Virus record (IMG/VR): IMGVR_UViG_3300031088_000819
Source of the DNA: a virus
Lineage: Duplodnaviria; Heunggongvirae; Uroviricota; Caudoviricetes
DNA length: 64,000 bases
Strand: one strand, 5' to 3'
Shown here: positions 25,000 to 33,905 of the stretch, in pieces
Layout of the letters: every line of letters begins with the position of its first letter
Position numbering within the stretch: position 1 is the stretch's first letter
The notes under the pieces: generated by a model
What the model was told of the DNA's origin: nothing
Database searches by the model: none
What the model saw: only the letters and a program-made list of their open reading frames with translations
Translations under genes and position numbers: made by a program

Positions 25000-25068
25000 A
25001 GCTCTAAACCAGGAAGTGTGGCCATTGTTAGAACAGTTGCCACACTTTTCCGCTTCCAAGGAGCTCCC

Positions 25069-25701
25069 ATGGCCAAGTGGCACTACAACCCGGAGACGGG
25101 CGACACCGGCAGATGCCGCGCTGTCTACAAGTGCAGATATGAGCTCTCCGAAGATGAGCACTACGGCTCCGCCCGGGAGGCCTCTCGGGCCTACGAGGAG
25201 CACCAGTCGGCAGCTGTTTTCAAGACTGTAAGCAAGCTGCCGGACTACCCCCAGGTGAGCGAGCCCCGAATAGCTGCAGAGAAGAGTTCTAATAGCTACC
25301 ACTATCAGGAGCTCTGGCTGAGAGATGAGAATGGGAAGCCTGCGGCCTATGTGAAGGTCAATAGGCTCACCTGGGGTGAGCTCGCCGATGGGTCCTATGG
25401 CTACAAGCCGGGAATAGTTGTCTGTGACATCGAGATCAGCCCCGACCACCGGGGCCAGAACTACGCTCTAGCTGCCATACGGAAGCTCCAGGAATCCAAT
25501 GGTGGAGAGCCCGTGGAGTTCACCGGTACTTTTTCGGAAGCTGGCTACAGGATGTACCAGCGGTTGGAGAAGCTGGGCCAAGAGGCGGGAACTCCCCTGG
25601 TGAAGATCTCCCACGGTGAGCGACTCAAAGAGCCAAGCCCTGGAGAAGAGTACAGCTTCGTGGACGATTGGGCAGAAGAGCGGGGCAAGTATCAGCTCTG
25701 A
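25069..25701 (+). CDS. Cys-Cys-His module fused to a GNAT acetyltransferase-like domain
   Basis: N-terminal KWHYNPETGDTGRCRAVYKCRYELSEDEHY..AYE. C-terminal VCDIEISPDHRGQNYALAAIRKL resembles GNAT motif A. SD AAGGAG. Confidence 0.55.
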   Translation: MAKWHYNPETGDTGRCRAVYKCRYELSEDEHYGSAREASRAYEEHQSAAVFKTVSKLPDYPQVSEPRIAAEKSSNSYHYQELWLRDENGKPAAYVKVNRLTWGELADGSYGYKPGIVVCDIEISPDHRGQNYALAAIRKLQESNGGEPVEFTGTFSEAGYRMYQRLEKLGQEAGTPLVKISHGERLKEPSPGEEYSFVDDWAEERGKYQL

Positions 25702-25768: not shown

Positions 25769-26197
25769 ATGAAGATCACTGTTGCTAACACTGTCGAGGC
25801 TGTCAACATTGTTAAGAACGATGATGGCACTGTGAGCATCGAGCTCAAGGGCGTGGACGCTGTCCGAGCTGAGGTGAAGCAGATCGCAAAGAAGCCCGCT
25901 GGCGGCATCAAGCTCATTCACAGTGGAGTTCGAGGCATTCCCGTGCTCTCCCGGGCCCAGAACGAGAAGATCACAGCCAGCAAGTGTGGCGTTCCCTTCA
26001 TGGACAGCAAGCTTCGACAGAAGCTCATTGAGAACGGCGCCCCCATGCTCGTTCGCGTCAATGTCTCTGATGCTAATATGTATACCAGCCAGAAGTCCGC
26101 TGCGAAGCACGGCATTCAGCTTCGCTTTGAGGCCACTCACAAGATTGAGGGAGACACCAACGCTCGAGGTAACGTCTACGCTGAGCTCGTCTGGTAG
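25769..26197 (+). CDS. hypothetical protein, probably strongly expressed
   Basis: 142 aa ORF framed by a consensus promoter and a strong terminator. Confidence 0.55.
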   Translation: MKITVANTVEAVNIVKNDDGTVSIELKGVDAVRAEVKQIAKKPAGGIKLIHSGVRGIPVLSRAQNEKITASKCGVPFMDSKLRQKLIENGAPMLVRVNVSDANMYTSQKSAAKHGIQLRFEATHKIEGDTNARGNVYAELVW

Positions 26198-26207
26198 AAA
26201 GCACTAT

Positions 26208-26241
26208 AAGAGGGGCGCCGCTGCGGCGCCCCCTCTTATTA
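26208..26241 (+). terminator. intrinsic terminator
   Basis: AAGAGGGGCGCCG ctgc GGCGCCCCCTCTT, a perfect 13 bp stem, followed by ATTAGC. Confidence 0.7.
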
Positions 26242-26585
26242 GCATGAGCCAATGTTTTGAAGTCTAAAAGCAGTCTAGCAATGTTGTAGATGGCGATCTA
26301 TATGCCCTATGGTAGCCTTAGCAGCACGAGACAAATGAATAACATCATGGAGATTTTCTAGCGCCTCCTAGATGTTTTCAGCATCGAGAAATTTCTCCTC
26401 GCTTGAGAAAATCTCATTTATCTTCCCCTGGCTATCGCAGCATCTTTGTAGTTCACTATAGATTTGGTTCAATGTGGTGTAATTCTGGTTCAATATGGCG
26501 CATTATGCGACCATCTTCTAATCCGTGTATGCAAACAGAACTCGCTTTGATATAGCTATTGTCTTTATTTTATAGCGAGGTTAGC

Positions 26586-27863
26586 ATGGACACCACATTT
26601 ACCATCATTGAAGAAAATAAATCTACCATTGCTGGACTAGGTGATTTACAGCTCACAATAGAATTAGGTATTCCCTATTACTTGCCGTCACACCGGGGTG
26701 ACTATCAGGGCCTCTGGAATCTTCTAGAGGAATTCGAAACCTTAGTGCTAAGCACCAAGAGAAACGAACTCTTAGAAAAAGAGAGAAATTTTTTGAGAGA
26801 GGCCAAGTCCAAGGGTTTCGTGGTGGTATTAGCTGGTCCAAGTCCATTCTTTTGGGAAAAGGGTGACGGAGAACTAATAGATCACAAAATATCTCTGGAT
26901 CCATTCCAAGAACAAGATCACTCACCACAGAGAGATGTGGCTTTCTTTTTCGAAGGATCAGGTTTAAAGTCTGATTTCCATAGAAGAGATGTCCAAGTTA
27001 CCATCTCTATATCTAAATTTCTGATTTCCTCTATGCGCAAATCTAAGAGTGAGATCGAAGAGGCTTCCTACGAAATTACTAAATATTTCCCCACAAGCGG
27101 GAAACTTTATATTTCAGAAATTGACTCCATACCTAATTGGCTTATTTTACAACTTTTGAAAGAACTTGAAAGTAAAAATACATCACTTGTGATCCTAAAT
27201 GAAAATCGAAAGATCACAGCAAAGGAATTGGAAGAATTCAGAAATGAGATTAAGCGAAGATGGAGAGATAATCTTCCCAGACAAGTGATTGTTTTAGATC
27301 CAGAGGGCAATAGAGCTAGTAAATTAAAAGGCGCGATAGACGCAGCTAGTAGCTATGAAAATCGATCTGGTCATGTAGATGTAGATTACTACAAGGGTGG
27401 AGATGAAATCGGCTGGAAATGGGAAGGTGCCTTTGAAAAAGCTAGAAACACTCCTAATGTTTTTCTAGTTGTTGAAGATGGCTCAGTTCTTCAACGTAGA
27501 GCAATGGATATACGAAAATATCTCAGTGAAATAGAAGCACTTGGTGGAGGTCTGTCCTTTGCCCACCAATCTAATGCGCTTTTTCACCATTTGGGAGCAG
27601 GATTTTACATTCTAGCAGATGAACCTCTAGCTAAGCTTGTAGAGCATCTTAAAGTAGATTCCTATCTCGACGAAATGAGCCTACAGACTCCCGTAAACCA
27701 AAGCGCCCTTTCAGAATATTCCCAAAATGTCGCTGTCAAACTGAAAGAACAAGGGAAAACTATTCAAGAGACATCGAAGATCATGGGAGTCAATAAATCA
27801 ACCATAAGCCGTTGGTTTAAAACGCTAAGAGGTCAACAAAGCAACCACGAAGATGAAAACTGA
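26586..27863 (+). CDS. protein with a C-terminal helix-turn-helix, in the low-GC island
   Basis: C-terminal KTIQETSKIMGVNKSTISRWFK is a resolvase/transposase-type HTH. Paralogous to 28633-29280. AT-rich codon usage. Confidence 0.55.
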   Translation: MDTTFTIIEENKSTIAGLGDLQLTIELGIPYYLPSHRGDYQGLWNLLEEFETLVLSTKRNELLEKERNFLREAKSKGFVVVLAGPSPFFWEKGDGELIDHKISLDPFQEQDHSPQRDVAFFFEGSGLKSDFHRRDVQVTISISKFLISSMRKSKSEIEEASYEITKYFPTSGKLYISEIDSIPNWLILQLLKELESKNTSLVILNENRKITAKELEEFRNEIKRRWRDNLPRQVIVLDPEGNRASKLKGAIDAASSYENRSGHVDVDYYKGGDEIGWKWEGAFEKARNTPNVFLVVEDGSVLQRRAMDIRKYLSEIEALGGGLSFAHQSNALFHHLGAGFYILADEPLAKLVEHLKVDSYLDEMSLQTPVNQSALSEYSQNVAVKLKEQGKTIQETSKIMGVNKSTISRWFKTLRGQQSNHEDEN

Positions 27864-27930
27864 TAGCTCCAATAACAGATAAACAAACAATTCACAGCTG
27901 TCCGAAATGCTCTCAATATAAGGAAATACT

Positions 27931-28377
27931 ATGAAAAGTAAGAAGAAACCTATGAGCCAATTTGTGGCATCGACACTGATGGATCTGGATGAACTGATAC
28001 TACGGCCACATTCGGGTTGGGTAGACGGAGCAGGCGTCCTCAACGAAGTTGACTGGTTCAGCACCGATGAACACAAAGCGAACAAGGAGAAAGGTCTATC
28101 CCACTCCTACAAGGAACCGTTCAGATCGAGAGGCTACCAAATAGCTCAGAGCCTGTCAGACAGCTCCTGGTGGGGAATCCGCTGGAACGATGCCTATGAG
28201 TTCATCAGCGAACACAAGGGGAAAGAAGCCGCAGCAAAGTTCGTTGAGATCAGGTTGGATCTAGCCGACAGGCAAGGCTGGTCTGGATATGGCCGGGACG
28301 GAGAGAGGCGACCACGAATAACTGTGTTTAGCGCTCCAAACATCGTCGTGCCTACGGAGGATGATGAAAAATCCTAA
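27931..28377 (+). CDS. hypothetical protein
   Basis: 148 aa. SD AAGGAAATA upstream. Confidence 0.45.
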   Translation: MKSKKKPMSQFVASTLMDLDELILRPHSGWVDGAGVLNEVDWFSTDEHKANKEKGLSHSYKEPFRSRGYQIAQSLSDSSWWGIRWNDAYEFISEHKGKEAAAKFVEIRLDLADRQGWSGYGRDGERRPRITVFSAPNIVVPTEDDEKS

Positions 28378-28392
28378 ACTAGTGCTATAAAA

Positions 28393-28424
28393 ATAGCCCC
28401 GAGCTTCAGCTCGGGGCTATTTAG
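28393..28424 (+). terminator. intrinsic terminator
   Basis: ATAGCCCCGAGC ttca GCTCGGGGCTAT stem followed by TTAGTG. Confidence 0.6.
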
Positions 28425-28632
28425 TGATGCCAATAACAGAATATTTATCTTTGAAATTAACTAAAAATTCAAAAGTTTGCTAACATTCCCACTTATGAGT
28501 ATCTAGATGCAAAATCTTATTTCGATTGATCTAAGGAACAAGATATTCTATGTCCTATTTTTAGCAATAGTTGCTTTGATATGGTAATTGATCGTTCCGG
28601 AAATTCCACGATCTTATTACATGGAGTAATTT

Positions 28633-29280
28633 ATGTCCAATCAAAGAACATACGCCCTAGTAGTAGATAGCCAAGAAGAACTTCAAAGATTTATAGGTCT
28701 TAGAGGTATCATAAGTGATGCTGAAGGCATGAGCGGAATAAGAAATTTAGATACTCTACAAGCTCAAGGCAATTTCAAAATCTACGGTGAACTCGAAGAA
28801 GATTCTTTCGGTAAGAAACGCAGTGGTACCAATATAGCAGAAGCCATCAAATATGTAACCACTCATCGCAATAGTGTCCTAGGAGTCACCTCTATTGAAC
28901 AAATTTCTAACAATATCCAAACTATTGTAGAAATACTGCAAGACATCCATGCAGCAGGAAGCGGAATCGTAATTAGATTTTCCTCCAGGGGCCTAGAGTT
29001 GAAATTTAGTCAGAGCGGTGAATACAATGGTTGGATCTGGATTGGTCAGGCTCTAGCCGATTTCATCGAACAAGTAAAGATTGCTGCCTACTTCGATGAG
29101 ATGTTCCACCCAAGTGCTTGGGCTAAGATTCCTAATTCTAAAATGTATCAGGTTTGGGATCAGATCAGTGCTGAAAAGAGCAATGCAGCTGTGTCTAGAG
29201 CTACCGGCATTTCAGAAAAAACAGTAGCTAAGCTAAGGCGCCGATTCAAAAATTTGGAAACCATCTATCGGAATAGATGA
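28633..29280 (+). CDS. protein with a C-terminal helix-turn-helix, paralog of 26586-27863
   Basis: C-terminal AAVSRATGISEKTVAKLRRRFK is an HTH. Shared block LA(K/D)..E..K..(S/A)Y(L/F)DEM. AT-rich. Confidence 0.55.
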   Translation: MSNQRTYALVVDSQEELQRFIGLRGIISDAEGMSGIRNLDTLQAQGNFKIYGELEEDSFGKKRSGTNIAEAIKYVTTHRNSVLGVTSIEQISNNIQTIVEILQDIHAAGSGIVIRFSSRGLELKFSQSGEYNGWIWIGQALADFIEQVKIAAYFDEMFHPSAWAKIPNSKMYQVWDQISAEKSNAAVSRATGISEKTVAKLRRRFKNLETIYRNR

Positions 29281-30881
29281 TGGTGCTAACACAAAGAAAA
29301 GAGTCCGCCAATAGCGATGCTGAATTAGTGGCGGTGGACTCCGCTACGGCTCTATCTTTTCTAGAAGAGCACTCCACCTCGGACAAAGATAGGCCAGGCA
29401 GCAATCTACGAAGCTGGGGCATAGAGGGGAATGGACAGCTCTTAGCAGTAATAGCAATCTGTAATCCTCGCACCCTAGAGCTTCAGAAAAGCTATACAAC
29501 TGAGCTCTATGGACTAGCTGTCTCAAATCAAAAGGCCAGTGGAGAGCTGATCAACTCTCTCATGAGCATAGCGATGGAATCAGGCATTCCAGACCTTTTC
29601 ATCCAAGGAGAACGAGCAAAAGAATATGGACAATACGGATTCGAGCGATCAACTGTTAGCAGTGATAATTCTGAGAGCTCAATCTATCATTGGCGTGATC
29701 CCTCAGTTCGATTTTACACCTACAAAATCACTAGCTCAAAGGGCAAAGGTTACTACATAGGCCGCCACAGAACAAGCCTGGAAACCATCGAAGAAATGGT
29801 CACCGATGGCTACATGGGCAGTGGGGGAGTGAAGTATAAAAACTGGATAGCCTCAGTTGGCGAAGAGACACTCTCCAAGGAAATTACAGGAGTCTATGGC
29901 ACTTGGAAGGAAGTAGTAGCTGCAGAAGAACAGCTCATCGGAAATCTCTATAAAACAGACAGCAATTGTAAGAACAGCAAACCGGGAGGCATAGGGCTTA
30001 CCAGCTATATGCCTGCATACACTATAGATTTTTGTCCCATACATGGGAAAACGAAGTTCAGAGGAAGGTGCCATAAATGCACAGTAGGTGATGCCCAGTC
30101 TCTGAAGGAATGCACTATACATGGACTCGTACTACATCGTGGTGATTCTTGTTTTACCTGCGTTAGAAGCAAAACTAACACTAAAAAGGAATGTTTAGTT
30201 CATGGTTTAGCTATCCACTATGGTGACACTTGTTCAAACTGCGCTAGCGCAGCAGCTAAACAGCTAGCAGAGTGCGAAATTCATGGATTTGTCATTCACC
30301 AGGGTAGCTCTTGTGCAACATGCGTAGCTGAAAAATCTGTTTCCCTTAAAATTTGCGCCATCCATGGAGAGACCAAGCATGTTGGCCAACACTGTCGTAA
30401 ATGTCTTAATGGCAGCGTAATAACTGAAAGCAATTGTCCCATTCATGGTCTAACCTCTTTCAAGGGCGAGAGCTGCGTCAAGTGCTCTGCAGCAAAGAGT
30501 TGGGCTATCTTTGAGTGTCCTATCCACGGTCAGACCAAACATCGAGGCAACAGCTGTGAAAAATGCACTCAGCAACAACGAGCTGCAGAGCAAAGAGCCC
30601 TTGAAGTGGTTCAAAGCTGCGCCACGCATGGCGAAACCGCTTTTCTCAAAGGTGAGTGCAAGCGCTGCGTAGCTCAAAAGAAAATATCCCTGAAGAAGTG
30701 CCCCACTCACGGGAAAACCAAACACACGGGGAATACTTGTGGAAAGTGTCTGGTGGCAAAGGTATGGACCACCGAAGAGTGCTCCATCCACGGTCTAGTT
30801 AAGCACCGCTCTGGCAAGTGTCAAAAGTGTGCTGCTCTCGCTAGCTGGGCAAAGCGCAAAGCCAAGGCGAAGGTAGATTAG
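29277..30881 (+). CDS. GIY-YIG-like domain protein with ~9-12 tandem zinc-ribbon repeats
   Basis: FYTYKITSSKGKGYYIGRH resembles a GIY-YIG nuclease motif. It is followed by a tandem array of C-x-x-HG-x3-(H/F)-x4-C-x-x-C units (~18 aa each). ATGA overlap with the upstream gene. AT-rich. Confidence 0.6.
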   Translation: MMVLTQRKESANSDAELVAVDSATALSFLEEHSTSDKDRPGSNLRSWGIEGNGQLLAVIAICNPRTLELQKSYTTELYGLAVSNQKASGELINSLMSIAMESGIPDLFIQGERAKEYGQYGFERSTVSSDNSESSIYHWRDPSVRFYTYKITSSKGKGYYIGRHRTSLETIEEMVTDGYMGSGGVKYKNWIASVGEETLSKEITGVYGTWKEVVAAEEQLIGNLYKTDSNCKNSKPGGIGLTSYMPAYTIDFCPIHGKTKFRGRCHKCTVGDAQSLKECTIHGLVLHRGDSCFTCVRSKTNTKKECLVHGLAIHYGDTCSNCASAAAKQLAECEIHGFVIHQGSSCATCVAEKSVSLKICAIHGETKHVGQHCRKCLNGSVITESNCPIHGLTSFKGESCVKCSAAKSWAIFECPIHGQTKHRGNSCEKCTQQQRAAEQRALEVVQSCATHGETAFLKGECKRCVAQKKISLKKCPTHGKTKHTGNTCGKCLVAKVWTTEECSIHGLVKHRSGKCQKCAALASWAKRKAKAKVD

Positions 30882-30943
30882 TTCCGTGATCTTCGTTAGA
30901 ATGGTTCTGTCTCATTGAACACTAACTAGAGGGGCTGGTAACC

Positions 30944-32035
30944 TTGGCTGTAGGACGGATGTATCCACAAACCATCGACAACGCAATAGCGATGCTGGAA
31001 AAGGTCTTCAAGAATTTTGAAAAAGCAGATTCTGGAGATGAAGATCGCTTCGTGTCAATTCTCATTAGCCGCCCTGGCCTCGGGAAATCTGCAACCATCG
31101 CAAAGATGGCAAAGCGCATGGGCTATGATTTGGTAGACCTTAATCTTGCCCAGTTAGATCCTACTGACGCACTAGGACTTGGAGCGAGAGAAAAAATTAA
31201 TGGCAAATGGGAAACTCACGTAGCTCTTCCCCAATGGGTTCATCGTGCAATGGCCGGAAAGTGCATCATTCTTGTGGATGAGTTCAATATGGGAACTCAA
31301 GATGTGCTTGGATCTTTCCAAAAGATGTTCTCGGATTTCGTCATCGATGGTGAAAAGCTCCCGAGGACTACCCACATCATCGGTGCCTGCAATCCTCCCG
31401 GCAAGGATGCTATCTTCGCAGCAAAGCGGCTCTCGGGAGCCTTCCGGCGTCGTCTTTGCATGATTCCCATCATCGATGACTTCGAGTACGTGCAGAAAAA
31501 GCACGGCTTCATCATGCCTCGGGGCTTTGTGAAGCCCAACTACGAGGACATCATCAACTATTGCAGCTACGATGAGATCTCCTCGGCAGTTGTGGATAAT
31601 GTCTTCAACATCGCCTCCTACGATGGACTCAAGGACGCAGAGAAGATCTCCCTCGTGGCGGGCTTCGGAGAAAAGGCCTTGGAGTTCGCCCAGGAGCTGG
31701 ACCTCTTCGCTAGCCACCTCTTCGCCTCCAGCTACAAGGCCACCAACTCGGAGCTCACCTACGTGGAGTGGAAGCGCAACCCCGAAGACTCCATCCCCGA
31801 GTACCAGCAGATCCTCTGGGGCCAAGAGTCCATCAAGAACAGCAGCTCCTACAACAACCAGAAGAAGTTCCTTTCCAGAATCGAGAACAACAGGGTCTAT
31901 GTGGCTCTCTATGCGCTCGTCAAGGAGAAGTTCGATGTGGATTACGAGGTAGATGAGGCCAAGCTGCCCGACTCAAAGGAGGACCCCACGGGTCAGCTGT
32001 CTGCTGTCGGTTCCACTGTCGAGGAGCAGGGCTAA
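30944..32035 (+). CDS. MoxR-like AAA+ ATPase (AAA_5 type)
   Basis: Walker A RPGLGKSAT, Walker B CIILVDEFN, sensor IIGACNP. Confidence 0.75.
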   Translation: MAVGRMYPQTIDNAIAMLEKVFKNFEKADSGDEDRFVSILISRPGLGKSATIAKMAKRMGYDLVDLNLAQLDPTDALGLGAREKINGKWETHVALPQWVHRAMAGKCIILVDEFNMGTQDVLGSFQKMFSDFVIDGEKLPRTTHIIGACNPPGKDAIFAAKRLSGAFRRRLCMIPIIDDFEYVQKKHGFIMPRGFVKPNYEDIINYCSYDEISSAVVDNVFNIASYDGLKDAEKISLVAGFGEKALEFAQELDLFASHLFASSYKATNSELTYVEWKRNPEDSIPEYQQILWGQESIKNSSSYNNQKKFLSRIENNRVYVALYALVKEKFDVDYEVDEAKLPDSKEDPTGQLSAVGSTVEEQG

Positions 32036-32036
32036 A

Positions 32037-33905
32037 ATGGCGCGGCTCCAGAAGAACTTTTCCTACGGTGAGCTCTGGACTGATCAGCCCGTTCGTAAAA
32101 GCGAAGTAGAGGGACTCCACGGCAGGGTAGAGGAGAGCCTTGCAAAGTTCACCACCAATGACGCCTTTGTGGACTTCGCAGAGCAGCATGGCTACAGGTT
32201 CTACATCGACTACGACTTCGACGGCGTAGCTCGTACCAACGTGACTGCCCGCGAGATCATTGTCAATGGCAACTATCCCGATGAGCTACTGAGTTCCTTC
32301 ATCCAGCACGAGATGGGCCACCTCATGCTCTTCGACGTGAACCAGTTTGTGACAGTGGGTAAAACCACCATGCGCTCTACAATCGCCGATGTGATCTACA
32401 CGCCAGAAAATCTCTCCACCTACGGCATGAGGCAGCTGCTACTCCTGGAGAACATCATCCAGGACATCATCATTGAGACCGTTTCGGATGGTTTCTGCGT
32501 TTGCAGCAATAGCCTCACCCACCTGGGTGGCAACATGGGCGTAAAGCACCTCCCCAGCCTCGAAGACACGAAGATCATTGCTCGAGAAGCCGCCAAAACG
32601 GTTCTCCGGGTAGAGGACAACTCCGACTTCAGCTCCGAGGAACTCGGCGACCTTCGGGGACTTTTGGAATCCATGCTAAAAGATCTCGAAGCGGATATGG
32701 GCGAGATCGGCGAGGAGATCAAGAAGAATTCCACCACCAACAAGTTCTCCGCCGAGAAGAGTCTTCAGAGATTCCGGAAGCTCCACGCTAAGAAGCAGCA
32801 GCTGGAAAAAGTTGAGAAAAAGCTCGCTAAAAAGTGGAACTCCAAGCTCCAAGCTCTCGCTGACAGGTTGGAGGGGGAAATCGAAGAGCTCGAAAGCCCC
32901 GAAAGAATAGAGAAGGACGCCGAGGAGGCGGAAGCGGAGCGGGCCAAGGAGGGGAAGAGACTCTCGGATAAGCTCGAAGCTGCGGGAGAGCTTCATAAGG
33001 CCCTCGAAGAACAACTCCGCAAGGCCGAAGAAGCGGAGGCCGAGCGAGACGCCTCCGGGGAGGATAAGAAAGCTGGTGGCGAGGCGAGCAAAGAGCTCAT
33101 CAAGAACTACACTGACCGCAACAGCTCCGACGATGAGGCCCCCGAAAATCCAGGCCACTCCTTCGATTGCGGGTTCCCTCATCCCGTCACCGTCGACCGC
33201 AGTGAGTCCCATGGGAATGAGCGCCATCTTCGCAAGATCAGTGGTGGCGTGAGAATCAAGACTTTGAGGCTCACCGAAGATGACGCTGATAACTCCATCG
33301 GCGGCAGAAGAAAAGCCCAAACGAGCGAGTACACCTATTTCAAGTCTGCCAAGAAGGAATTCGATGAGACAGACATGCTCAAGGGTAAGCGGAGGGAGAA
33401 GCTCACTGGCATCAATGTGCTCATTGGACTGGATGTCTCGGGTTCTATGACCAATGAATGGACTTCCATGTTCAGTGAGATCTCTAGGCTGGTGGAGGAA
33501 CTCAAAGAAACTCTTGACATCGAAGAAATCATCTACTTCACCTACAACCATAGGCTCCGGCAGCACTCCAGGGAGTTCTCCGACCTGAAGCTCACAGCTA
33601 GCGGCGGCAACGCATTTGGCTATGTCTACCAGGATATGATGACGCGGCTCCCCATGCTCCAAAAAAATGAGATCATTCTGGTGACAGACTGTGGAGATAG
33701 TCTAGGGTTCAAGCTCAACTCTGTCTGCCAGGCGGAGCGCAATGGCGTGGAGGTGGAGAACCACATCTCCATCATTGACACGGAGGGCGCTGGTTTCTAC
33801 GCTAAGAGTGACTTCCAGGCTGAAGATTGGGACATCTATTCGGCCAAGGACAAAAAGCTCTACAAGGGCATCAAGGATCGCATAGAAGAGCTCATCGAGC
33901 GATAG
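32037..33905 (+). CDS. zincin-like (HExxH) plus C-terminal vWA (MIDAS) protein with a central charged coiled coil
   Basis: FIQHEMGHLM near the N-terminus. LIGLDVSGSM MIDAS motif near the C-terminus. About 130 aa of E/K-rich coiled coil between them. Starts 2 nt after the AAA gene. Confidence 0.7.
   Translation: MARLQKNFSYGELWTDQPVRKSEVEGLHGRVEESLAKFTTNDAFVDFAEQHGYRFYIDYDFDGVARTNVTAREIIVNGNYPDELLSSFIQHEMGHLMLFDVNQFVTVGKTTMRSTIADVIYTPENLSTYGMRQLLLLENIIQDIIIETVSDGFCVCSNSLTHLGGNMGVKHLPSLEDTKIIAREAAKTVLRVEDNSDFSSEELGDLRGLLESMLKDLEADMGEIGEEIKKNSTTNKFSAEKSLQRFRKLHAKKQQLEKVEKKLAKKWNSKLQALADRLEGEIEELESPERIEKDAEEAEAERAKEGKRLSDKLEAAGELHKALEEQLRKAEEAEAERDASGEDKKAGGEASKELIKNYTDRNSSDDEAPENPGHSFDCGFPHPVTVDRSESHGNERHLRKISGGVRIKTLRLTEDDADNSIGGRRKAQTSEYTYFKSAKKEFDETDMLKGKRREKLTGINVLIGLDVSGSMTNEWTSMFSEISRLVEELKETLDIEEIIYFTYNHRLRQHSREFSDLKLTASGGNAFGYVYQDMMTRLPMLQKNEIILVTDCGDSLGFKLNSVCQAERNGVEVENHISIIDTEGAGFYAKSDFQAEDWDIYSAKDKKLYKGIKDRIEELIER

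Follow-up and report, generated by a model that had tools for sequence, protein, structure and literature searches.

Introduction

GIY-YIG homing endonucleases find long DNA targets with small modules such as NUMODs, helix-turn-helix (HTH) motifs and a single zinc finger. Two described systems are close to the locus reported here. The Seg enzymes of phage T4 (SegA-G) are free-standing genes that lie between conserved phage genes, are distributed patchily among relatives and occur in several copies per genome. I-TevI is intron-encoded and has its GIY-YIG domain at the N-terminus, followed by a long C-terminal region that binds DNA and comprises one Cys4 ruler finger, a minor-groove helix and an HTH motif within the same chain; the enzyme also represses its own gene (PMC2988022). 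Here we analysed a stretch of 64,000 nucleotides (the window) from IMG/VR virus record IMGVR_UViG_3300031088_000819, part of a phage genome of ~475 kb, in which an AT-rich island at ~26.25-30.9 kb encodes two HTH proteins and a 534-aa GIY-YIG nuclease bearing ten tandem zinc fingers. We consider it reasonably probable that the island is a free-standing homing-endonuclease cassette of this huge phage, with the finger array serving as the targeting domain. Like the Seg genes, the nuclease gene stands free next to a conserved phage gene, is patchy among relatives and belongs to a family with several copies per genome.

The class of nuclease and its lifestyle are already known. An array of fingers with the ligands Cys, His, Cys and Cys (CHCC) at a fixed period of 27 aa, its combination with a Mom-like domain, and the pseudo-resolvase encoded next to the nuclease are undescribed in any source searched.

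The island encodes a Seg-type GIY-YIG nuclease

All genes of the island lie on the plus strand. The features that carry the argument are as follows.

26586-27863, plus strand: 425-aa HTH protein (434 aa from TTG at 26559); HTH_23 at residues 392-423, E=4e-6
28633-29280, plus strand: 215-aa pseudo-resolvase; HTH_23 E=5e-3, Pfam Resolvase E=8e-4, the latter below the curated cutoff
29277-30881, plus strand: 534-aa nuclease, made up of the next three regions
29277-29711, plus strand: degenerate Mom-like GNAT domain, residues 1-145 (Foldseek; Pfam matches of homologs)
29712-30011, plus strand: Seg-type GIY-YIG catalytic domain, residues 146-245 (PHROG 314, T4 SegC, tblastn)
30033-30830, plus strand: ten tandem C-x2-H-G-x7/8-C-x2-C fingers, residues 253-518 (regular-expression and six-frame scans)
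30944-32035, plus strand: conserved AAA ATPase, KSY1 gp027 / N4 gp24-like (Pfam AAA, AAA_5)

The 534-aa open reading frame (ORF) contains FYTYKITSSKGKGYYIGRH, and an earlier note on this DNA, made from the letters alone, had remarked on a GIY-YIG-like motif here. Profile and pairwise comparisons place that motif in a Seg-type domain: the protein matched PHROG 314 'homing endonuclease' (7e-11) and PADLOC HEase (1.7e-6), T4 SegC was 35% identical to it over 95 aa (pairwise E=4e-12), and tblastn returned Seg-like homing endonucleases of T4-like phages. Across 51 homologs the residues Y147, Y149, Y160, G162, D177, Y179, G181-G183, E217 and N233 were invariant. The GIY and YIG motifs correspond to FYTYKIT (Y147, Y149) and YYIGR (Y159, Y160, G162), with 11 residues between Y149 and Y160, and the catalytic glutamate and its downstream asparagine are E217 and N233, 16 residues apart and aligned with AE...N.K.GGIG of T4 SegC. 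In I-TevI the residues Y6, Y17, E75 and N90 are spaced 11, 58 and 15; the spacing of Y149, Y160, E217 and N233 in the nuclease (11, 57 and 16) mirrors this arrangement. The nuclease shares with the Seg enzymes the catalytic subtype FYxYxIT...YIGxH(R/K)T...DGYMGSG...AE...N.K.GGIG, and it is this domain that would cut DNA.

Beyond the catalytic domain the resemblance to either system fades. Similarity to SegC ends with the GIY-YIG domain, and the array was unmatched in deposited phage genomes (see below); by these comparisons, then, neither the ten-finger array nor the Mom-like domain has an equivalent in the Seg enzymes. With I-TevI the nuclease shares the joining of an N-terminal GIY-YIG domain to an extended C-terminal region (DNA-binding in I-TevI, predicted to be so here) that includes zinc-finger structure, but it has ten CHCC fingers in place of one Cys4 finger, no HTH in the chain and no intron. 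The I-TevI-like architecture proposed in the earlier note could not be upheld, since the HTH sits in a separate, co-transcribed pseudo-resolvase and a nuclease without its own HTH does not have the I-TevI layout.

Ten CHCC fingers follow the catalytic domain

Thirty of the 32 cysteines of the 534-aa protein lie past residue 250. The first cysteines of the fingers are residues 253, 279, 306, 333, 360, 387, 414, 448, 475 and 502, giving spacings of 26, 27, 27, 27, 27, 27, 34, 27 and 27 residues around a core of 16-17 aa. There are ten CxxH and ten CxxC motifs, and because the array opens with CxxH and closes with CxxC every site is complete, in agreement with ten self-contained CHCC sites. A zinc register that pairs CxxC of unit n with CxxH of unit n+1 was rejected because of the ends of the array and by the modelled secondary structure. 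An array of ~9-12 regular tandem zinc ribbons of ~18 aa had been noted before; the array is real and has exactly ten units, while the true period is 27 aa and the modelled fold is beta-beta-alpha.

An AlphaFold 2 (AF2) model of the nuclease, built from the 51-sequence alignment, reached a predicted local distance difference test score (pLDDT) of 90.7. Each modelled finger has a strand leading to the first cysteine, a His-Gly turn, a second strand and a CxxC at the N-terminus of a helix, as for C292 and C295 with helix 293-300. Zinc ribbons have two knuckles, each at the turn of a beta-hairpin, whereas here the second pair, CxxC, stands at the helix N-terminus in the model. The fingers thus look like beta-beta-alpha, treble-clef-like modules and not like zinc ribbons in the prediction, in which each would hold one zinc through C, H, C and C. 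Matches to Zn_ribbon_HMPTM were all below threshold, and a profile search of the PDB by sequence returned only Mdm2 RING matches, none of them significant (E=0.18).

The array resembles eukaryotic C2H2 arrays and engineered zinc-finger nucleases (ZFNs) in its tandem beta-beta-alpha zinc modules with a period of ~27-28 aa, and ZFNs also in the fusion of zinc modules to a nuclease domain, which is natural in the window protein and artificial in ZFNs. In C2H2 fingers, however, CxxC lies in the hairpin and HxxxH at the C-terminus of the helix, whereas the window array has CxxH at the hairpin and CxxC at the helix N-terminus. The ligand order of the array is C-x2-H...C-x2-C, compared to C-x2-4-C...H-x3-5-H in C2H2 arrays; there was no Pfam zf-C2H2 match, and we found no sequence similarity between it and C2H2 fingers.

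The array is strongly basic (isoelectric point 9.2, net charge +24) and is followed by a basic C-terminal helix that extends to residue 534. Outside the ligand residues, the fingers of any one protein are only ~20% identical to one another. Between orthologs, fingers of the same index are 42-48% identical outside these residues, compared to 21-25% for fingers of different index; the array is therefore old, with each finger keeping its own identity. Such index-specific identity is as expected for site-specific contacts. The positions that are most finger-specific and yet conserved between orthologs lie about -4, 10, 15 and 18 from the first cysteine. One reading of this pattern, which we hold only tentatively and regard as doubtful, is that the 27-residue fingers form the modular, reprogrammable DNA-reading array of a natural zinc-finger nuclease, with a fixed number of base pairs per finger; positions about -4, 10, 15 and 18 would then set its specificity.

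The finger array marks a protein family of uncultured, mostly very large phages

A word-indexed search recovered 86 full-length homologs (28-53% identity), and an exhaustive HMMER search with the array alone recovered only 129 clusters among 1.84 billion representative proteins, in nearly all of which the array lies C-terminal to a Seg-type GIY-YIG domain. Nearly all members have 5-14 fingers, and of the ~200 proteins scanned (113 cluster representatives plus the 86 homologs) almost every one has the 27-aa period. An additional match to the pattern, shifted by ~14 aa, occurs in a few distant members, as expected of all-Cys CxxC runs. The N-terminal domain is full-length, shortened or absent, so that the first finger begins at about residue 320, 250 or 120.

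No tblastn match to the array was found in 50,697 deposited phage genomes, and no near-identical DNA to the island was found among deposited phages. Of 394 Seg-type matches in IMG/VR, the full architecture was seen in only one (L029) of the best 80. With the family proteins P0012 and P0068 as queries, scans of representative bacterial and archaeal genomes, which are sensitive to close relatives only, returned no relatives. Many of the source contigs are very large, reaching 828 kb, and phage replication genes such as SSB, RecA, DnaB and Pif1 lie on them. Within these searches the family is restricted to uncultured, mostly very large phages.

Proteins matching the window's ATPase and its 425-aa and 215-aa proteins are on record for a contig of 475,513 bp, and the window appears to derive from a contig of about this length. 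P0073 (604 aa), a second family member recorded for a contig of equal length, falls outside the window; it shares 32% identity with the window nuclease, and its N-terminal region is long, as in full-length members. Two family members each are also listed on contigs of 828,236, 300,084 and 21,323 bp.

A Mom-like domain, probably vestigial in the window copy, precedes the nuclease

Absent from the earlier note was a Mom-like GNAT domain at the N-terminus of the nuclease. When residues 1-145 were compared with the PDB by Foldseek, GNAT acetyltransferases were the top matches; second among them was Mom of phage Mu (8bv8_B; E=3.8e-5), which modifies adenine at N6 in a tRNA-dependent manner. Pfam Mom (PF25680) was matched by 22 of the 51 homologs, with a best E of 9e-8, and the window protein itself had no Pfam match at E<=0.1. 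In most homologs the domain has ~210 aa and aligns with Mu Mom through equivalents of H58, R111 and D149, with an insertion; unlike Mu Mom, these intact members carry a canonical RxxGxA-like motif (RVxGGA), and even in them the equivalent of R151 is not conserved in the hhalign alignment.

The activity of Mu Mom needs R111, S124, D149 and R151 as well as the HTH-like insertion 175-209 (PMC13219725). The window copy has ELYGL in place of ELxRL, so that its R111 equivalent is gone, and it lacks RVxGGA, YQD, the D149 equivalent, the HTH-like insertion of Mu Mom and the insertion of ~75 aa carried by full-length members; a minority of other members also lack the ~75-aa insertion. As residues and an insertion that are essential in Mu Mom are missing, the Mom-like domain of the window nuclease is probably vestigial, to judge from its sequence.

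A domain of this kind recurs next to unrelated homing nucleases. The N-terminal domain of P0012 matched gp030 of Proteus phage Pm5461, annotated as a 'Hef-like homing endonuclease' (E=7e-10), which combines Pfam Mom (6e-5) with an REase_MTES_1575 domain and whose gene splits uvsX. The literature describes U5 Hef as a Vsr-like homing endonuclease with nrdB as the gene that it cleaves (PMC2988022, PMC3239194). The Hef type (U5 Hef, Pm5461 gp030) is thus similar to the window nuclease in having a Mom-like GNAT and a nuclease domain in a phage homing-type gene, and differs in its Vsr/REase-like nuclease, in the C-terminal place of the Mom-like domain, which is intact in Hef-like enzymes, and in the lack of a finger array. 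That a Mom-like GNAT recurs as the partner of unrelated homing nuclease domains, Vsr-like in Hef and GIY-YIG in the window family, raises the question of whether it modifies DNA or only binds it in such enzymes.

Beside gp030 in Pm5461 (L027, 20-2019) lies gp031, which is annotated as a 'recombinase' but represents the C-terminal portion of UvsX (Pfam T4_UVSX_C, 1.4e-35); it has a weak intein-splicing match and overlaps the start of gp030 by 4 nt. This 'recombinase' was considered as a parallel to the pseudo-resolvase and rejected, as it is the C-terminal half of a split UvsX.

The Mom-like domain bears on a second explanation, in which the family acts as a restriction-modification-like weapon in a single chain: adenines of the phage's own DNA would be modified by the Mom-like domain, and the finger-guided GIY-YIG domain would degrade unmodified DNA of the host or of competing phages. 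On this view the window copy would have kept the nuclease function only, or it would be protected by the intact paralog P0073 elsewhere in the genome, which as a second full-length paralog on the source contig speaks for this explanation. Iyer et al. 2021 predicted such logic for fusions of Mom with REase-fold nucleases in jumbo phages (PMC7824862). The full ~210-aa domain kept by most members and the conserved position of the gene between SSB and RecA in one huge-phage clade fit it as well. However, the Mom-like domain is dispensable, as many members start at the GIY-YIG domain, and several short forms, the window copy among them, show its independent decay. Neither the lack of conservation at the R151 equivalent nor the very long site implied by 6-13 fingers, which is typical of homing and not of restriction enzymes, would be expected of such a weapon; the same domain occurs in the Hef-like gene that splits uvsX, which is homing-type behaviour; and the module is patchy at the ATPase locus. 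We therefore regard a restriction-modification-like role as unlikely for the island, while for the intact family members it is the main rival to homing.

The nuclease is coupled to a resolvase-like protein that lacks catalytic residues

The stop codon of the 215-aa gene overlaps the start codon of the nuclease gene (ATGA). The 215-aa protein has the layout of the small serine recombinases (gamma-delta/Tn3, Sin, Hin), with an alpha/beta domain like theirs, a long E-like helix and a C-terminal HTH. Orthologs are 61-69% identical, and five of the six family members show the weak Pfam Resolvase match in addition to a C-terminal HTH_23. In PDB comparisons its AF2 model (pLDDT 73) came closest to gamma-delta resolvase (1gdt_A, E=1.5e-4), with the Tn3 and Sin resolvases next (5cy1, 2r0q), which identifies the fold with only moderate confidence.

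Unlike the small serine recombinases, the family lacks R8, S10, R68 and R71, and its scores are below the Pfam threshold. In an alignment made by eye and guided by Pfam and Foldseek, YALVVDSQ aligns with YARVSTSQ, so that R8 is replaced by L and S10 by V or A; TSIEQIS aligns by eye with KLDRLGR, where R68 and R71 are replaced. By this alignment all four residues are replaced in all six members, and the catalytic set of a serine recombinase is lacking. Recombination chemistry is therefore not expected of the 215-aa protein. Most likely it binds DNA, and it could repress the cassette or serve as a site-binding accessory. No report of an upstream pseudo-resolvase partner of Seg genes was found, and coupling to a catalytically dead resolvase-like HTH protein was found described nowhere for homing-endonuclease genes.

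The 425-aa gene, which has a GAGG ribosome-binding site ahead of the ATG at 26586, has no nuclease partner. The N-terminal ~240 aa of its product fall in no known family and the C-terminal ~190 aa form a pseudo-resolvase-like domain with an HTH. Its one detectable homolog is P0096 (37% identity); the C-terminal half of the 425-aa protein shares 37.5% identity with the 200-aa protein encoded ahead of the L003 nuclease. The view that the island holds two paralogous proteins ending in HTH motifs proved correct on the basis of HTH_23, BLASTP and hhalign, with a distant and weak paralogy (BLASTP E=1e-3; hhalign E=8.6e-5 over 134 columns).

The module occupies the ATPase locus in a minority of relatives

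The ATPase gene downstream of the nuclease (43% identity to KSY1 gp027, 3e-83) was used to compare 19 related loci (L numbers) including the window; the other 18 range in GC content from 27 to 62%, and their contigs reach 674 kb in length. The ATPase and the next gene are conserved at 55-73% identity in these 18 loci. The ATPase thus anchors the locus, and it is a candidate region for the homing target. Directly upstream of it the loci carry the following.

Window: 215-aa HTH protein, then 534-aa nuclease
L010: 218-aa HTH protein (67% identity), then 532-aa nuclease (50%)
L003: 200-aa HTH protein of another subtype, then 604-aa nuclease (44%)
L011: a truncated, HTH-less remnant of 167 aa only; no nuclease
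Other 15 loci (L002, L013-L026): unrelated genes; module absent

The complete module is thus present at three of the 19 loci and a fourth keeps a decayed remnant. In the three complete modules the HTH and nuclease genes are separated by -4, +3 and +1 nt. L002 (IMG/VR, 419 kb) has only the ATPase and the gene after it in common with the window. The nuclease gene accordingly stands free next to a conserved gene, and is present or absent among relatives at the same locus, as homing genes are. The finding of a different HTH subtype with the nuclease of L003 indicates that modules have been shuffled. Upstream of the ATPase lies a hotspot of variable genes.

A further explanation can be weighed here, namely that the Cys/His repeats serve as a spacer, structural or redox-sensitive, or as a scaffold for interactions with protein or RNA, and that DNA targeting is left to the separate HTH protein. 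The nuclease is indeed always coupled to an HTH protein at the ATPase locus, and I-TevI's zinc finger is a distance determinant, not a sequence reader (PMC2988022). Most family members nevertheless lack an HTH partner (L004, L007, L009, L029), and a strongly basic array whose fingers keep index-specific identities between orthologs, and whose finger count varies (5-14) at a fixed period as in DNA-reading repeat arrays, speaks against a spacer. We consider this explanation very improbable.

The island is compositionally deviant

In 500-nt windows the GC content between ~26.25 and 30.5 kb was 0.37-0.46, compared to 0.55-0.57 in the flanks, with recovery by ~31.3 kb; no dip of equal depth occurs elsewhere in the 64 kb. 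GC content at third codon positions (GC3) was 0.336 for the 425-aa gene (26559/26586-27863), 0.352 for the 215-aa gene (28633-29280) and 0.450 for the nuclease gene (29277-30881), while the 69 plus-strand backbone ORFs had a mean of 0.630 (standard deviation 0.077, minimum 0.457). The island genes (z = -3.8 for the 425/434-aa gene, -3.6 for the 215-aa gene and -2.3 for the 534-aa gene) therefore all fall below every backbone ORF. These values agree with the low-GC island of AT-rich codon usage described at ~26.25-30.9 kb in the earlier note. As a single AT-rich block the description suits the three genes but not a 148-aa ORF at 27931-28377, whose GC3 is backbone-like.

Across the relatives the GC content of the module tracks that of the host genome and lags below it, with the largest gap in the window, whose copy is the most compositionally deviant. 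One sign that would have spoken against a recent insertion was the occurrence of the same genes at the same place with the same composition in related genomes, and this is in part what was found: two distant relatives, L010 and L003, carry the module at the same place with a GC content near that of the host. The cassette is therefore an old, recurrent occupant of the locus.

These data are relevant to the possibility that the island is a non-mobile, ancestral AT-rich regulatory module, composed of DNA-binding regulators and a domesticated, nuclease-derived DNA-binding protein, and lost in most relatives. Its low GC would then stem from gene-specific constraints or expression timing and not from transfer. 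The same two-gene module lies at the same place in L010 and L003 despite an ATPase identity of only 62-67%, the GC content of the HTH gene is below that of its genome in L010 and L011 too, and each HTH gene has its own conserved upstream motif, all of which such a module would explain. Against this, 15 of the 19 loci have unrelated genes upstream of the ATPase in place of the module, the L003 nuclease is paired with an HTH subtype unlike that of the window and L010, and the GC3 gap in the window (0.35-0.45 versus 0.63) is far larger than in L010 or L003. In addition, the family-wide invariance of the GIY-YIG catalytic residues speaks against a domesticated protein without catalysis. A non-mobile regulatory module is thus improbable.

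A model for the cassette

Taken together, the conserved catalytic domain, the long basic array, the patchy locus with its remnant, the shuffled partners and the several copies per genome support the homing-endonuclease reading, and the mobile cassette proposed in the earlier note remains the best account of a module found at three of 19 ATPase loci, with one remnant. The comparisons show the domain architecture, the conserved GIY-YIG motifs, the 27-aa period throughout the family, the operon structure in three genomes, the patchiness at one locus and the deviant composition; from them we infer nuclease activity, zinc binding, DNA binding by the array, a target site and homing or mobility. In the model, the basic ten-finger array would act as a long-site DNA-binding and targeting domain, in the role that the zinc finger, helix and HTH region play in I-TevI. 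The 215-aa pseudo-resolvase, translationally coupled to the nuclease, would bind DNA without recombining it. During mixed infection the nuclease would cleave the allele that lacks the cassette, close to the AAA ATPase gene, and repair from the cassette-bearing genome would copy the cassette into the cut allele.

Several observations weigh against this model. The window protein had no match at E<=0.1 to any Pfam model, Pfam GIY-YIG and SegE_GIY-YIG being matched by some homologs only. R163 is invariant in the seven closest sequences, yet it falls outside the columns conserved in at least 90% of the 51-sequence alignment, so that its equivalence to the catalytic R27 of I-TevI is ambiguous. DNA binding by the array is suggested only by its charge, its position in the protein and analogy. 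In a clade of huge phages (L004-L007, L029) the nuclease gene lies between SSB and RecA in conserved synteny, with native GC and no HTH partner, and this placement looks more like that of a resident functional gene than of a roaming element. Among the 14 module-free loci besides L002 the ATPase is 61-73% identical to that of the window, and the nearest relatives are no closer. Finally, the GC content of the L010 and L003 modules is close to that of their hosts, and the low GC of the window may therefore be only partly a signal of transfer.

In the SSB-RecA clade the order SSB, a conserved gene of 354-366 aa, nuclease and RecA is kept in L004, L007 and L029 (L004 8965-11860, L007 8938-11851, L029 4917-7836), and the nuclease gene overlaps the end of the 354-366 aa gene (by 29 nt in L004 and L007). 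The product of the latter has a hydrophobic N-terminus and a GGTGGGK P-loop-like motif.

With regard to targeting, the family replaces the NUMOD, HTH and single-finger modules of other GIY-YIG homing endonucleases with 5-14 fingers at an invariant 27-residue spacing. A literature search for architectures combining Mom, GIY-YIG and zinc ribbons found nothing relevant. If the array reads DNA, the nuclease would parallel, in nature, the engineered zinc-finger or Tev-TALE nucleases, and the array would be a new repeat scaffold whose recognition rules could be derived from ~130 sequence clusters. If it is also modular, site length would scale with the number of fingers (5-14), and the scaffold could be reprogrammed like C2H2 fingers or TALEs.

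Repeats, junctions and neighbouring genes

The remaining features of the island are non-coding elements and one inserted unit.

26210-26240, plus strand: Rho-independent terminator of the upstream backbone gene; stem 26212-26232, nine GC pairs
26466-26498, plus strand: two exact 12-nt direct repeats, GGTTCAATGTGG (26466) and GGTTCAATATGG (26487), i.e. the GGTTCAATRTGG pair
26544-26561, plus strand: 18-nt motif GCTTTGATATAGCTATTG, upstream of the 425-aa HTH gene (repeat search)
27869-28440, plus strand: GC-normal cassette inside the island, an ORF and terminator between 11-bp repeats
28573-28590, plus strand: second copy of the 18-nt motif, GCTTTGATATGGTAATTG, 43 nt upstream of the 215-aa gene (repeat search)

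The GGTTCAATRTGG repeats, 21 nt apart from start to start and ~100-120 nt upstream of the first HTH gene, are the sole two zero-mismatch sites in the window and are candidate operator sites. Of the direct repeats reported previously for this region, GGTTCAATGTGG / GGTTCAATATGG are therefore exact and unique, while TATAGCTATT / TATAGCGAGG have only TATAGC in common, which is not significant alone. TATAGCTATT forms part of the 18-nt motif common to the upstream regions of both HTH genes. The degenerate pattern of this motif matched three times (0.18 expected), and it may be an extended -10 promoter or an operator. A sigma-70 promoter scan gave no enrichment compared to shuffled sequence.

The 148-aa ORF at 27931-28377 (GC3 0.57, z = -0.8) had no match in Pfam, PHROG or PADLOC. 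The 11-bp direct repeat CCAATAACAGA, at 27869-27879 and 28430-28440, occurs exactly twice in the window (0.02 expected), and its copies bracket precisely this ORF and its terminator (28391-28422), a hairpin formed by a 15-nt inverted repeat with 100% complementarity. From this arrangement, the 561-bp cassette around the ORF looks like one gained or lost by microhomology.

The terminator at 26210-26240 forms the left edge of the AT-rich island and is directly preceded by AGCACTATAA at 26200-26209. The pattern AG(C/T)(A/G)CTATAA (AGYRCTATAA) followed by a GC-rich hairpin terminator occurs exactly only at 26200-26240 and 28381-28422, and both sites sit at the left edge of an AT-rich segment; it may be a junction signature or the ordinary terminator context of this genome. 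When the left and right junctions of the two AT-rich segments were aligned, similarity was confined to short motifs and none was extended. No tRNA genes were found in the 64-kb window.

Upstream of the island, the gene at 25769-26197 had no relative among JGI metagenome contigs. The ORF at 25018-25701 has a weak Pfam match to Acetyltransf_1 (GNAT; 2.8e-4), and in L013 a homolog lies at a distance of ~8 kb on the upstream side of the ATPase, so that synteny there is loose. In the low-GC relatives L016 (49-2437) and L018 (5187-7556), the space upstream of the ATPase holds a stretch with a tRNA-derived-looking translation (GIEPALSAW) and a minus-strand protein of 617-628 aa that begins with Cys-rich motifs (CRICGS...). 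After the ATPase, a 650-aa ORF (31953-33905) is conserved with it in all relatives examined. Its product has a long charged coiled region and a weak PHROG match to 'HNH endonuclease' (2.9e-8, residues 455-580); the listed start overlaps the ATPase gene, and the real start is probably further downstream.

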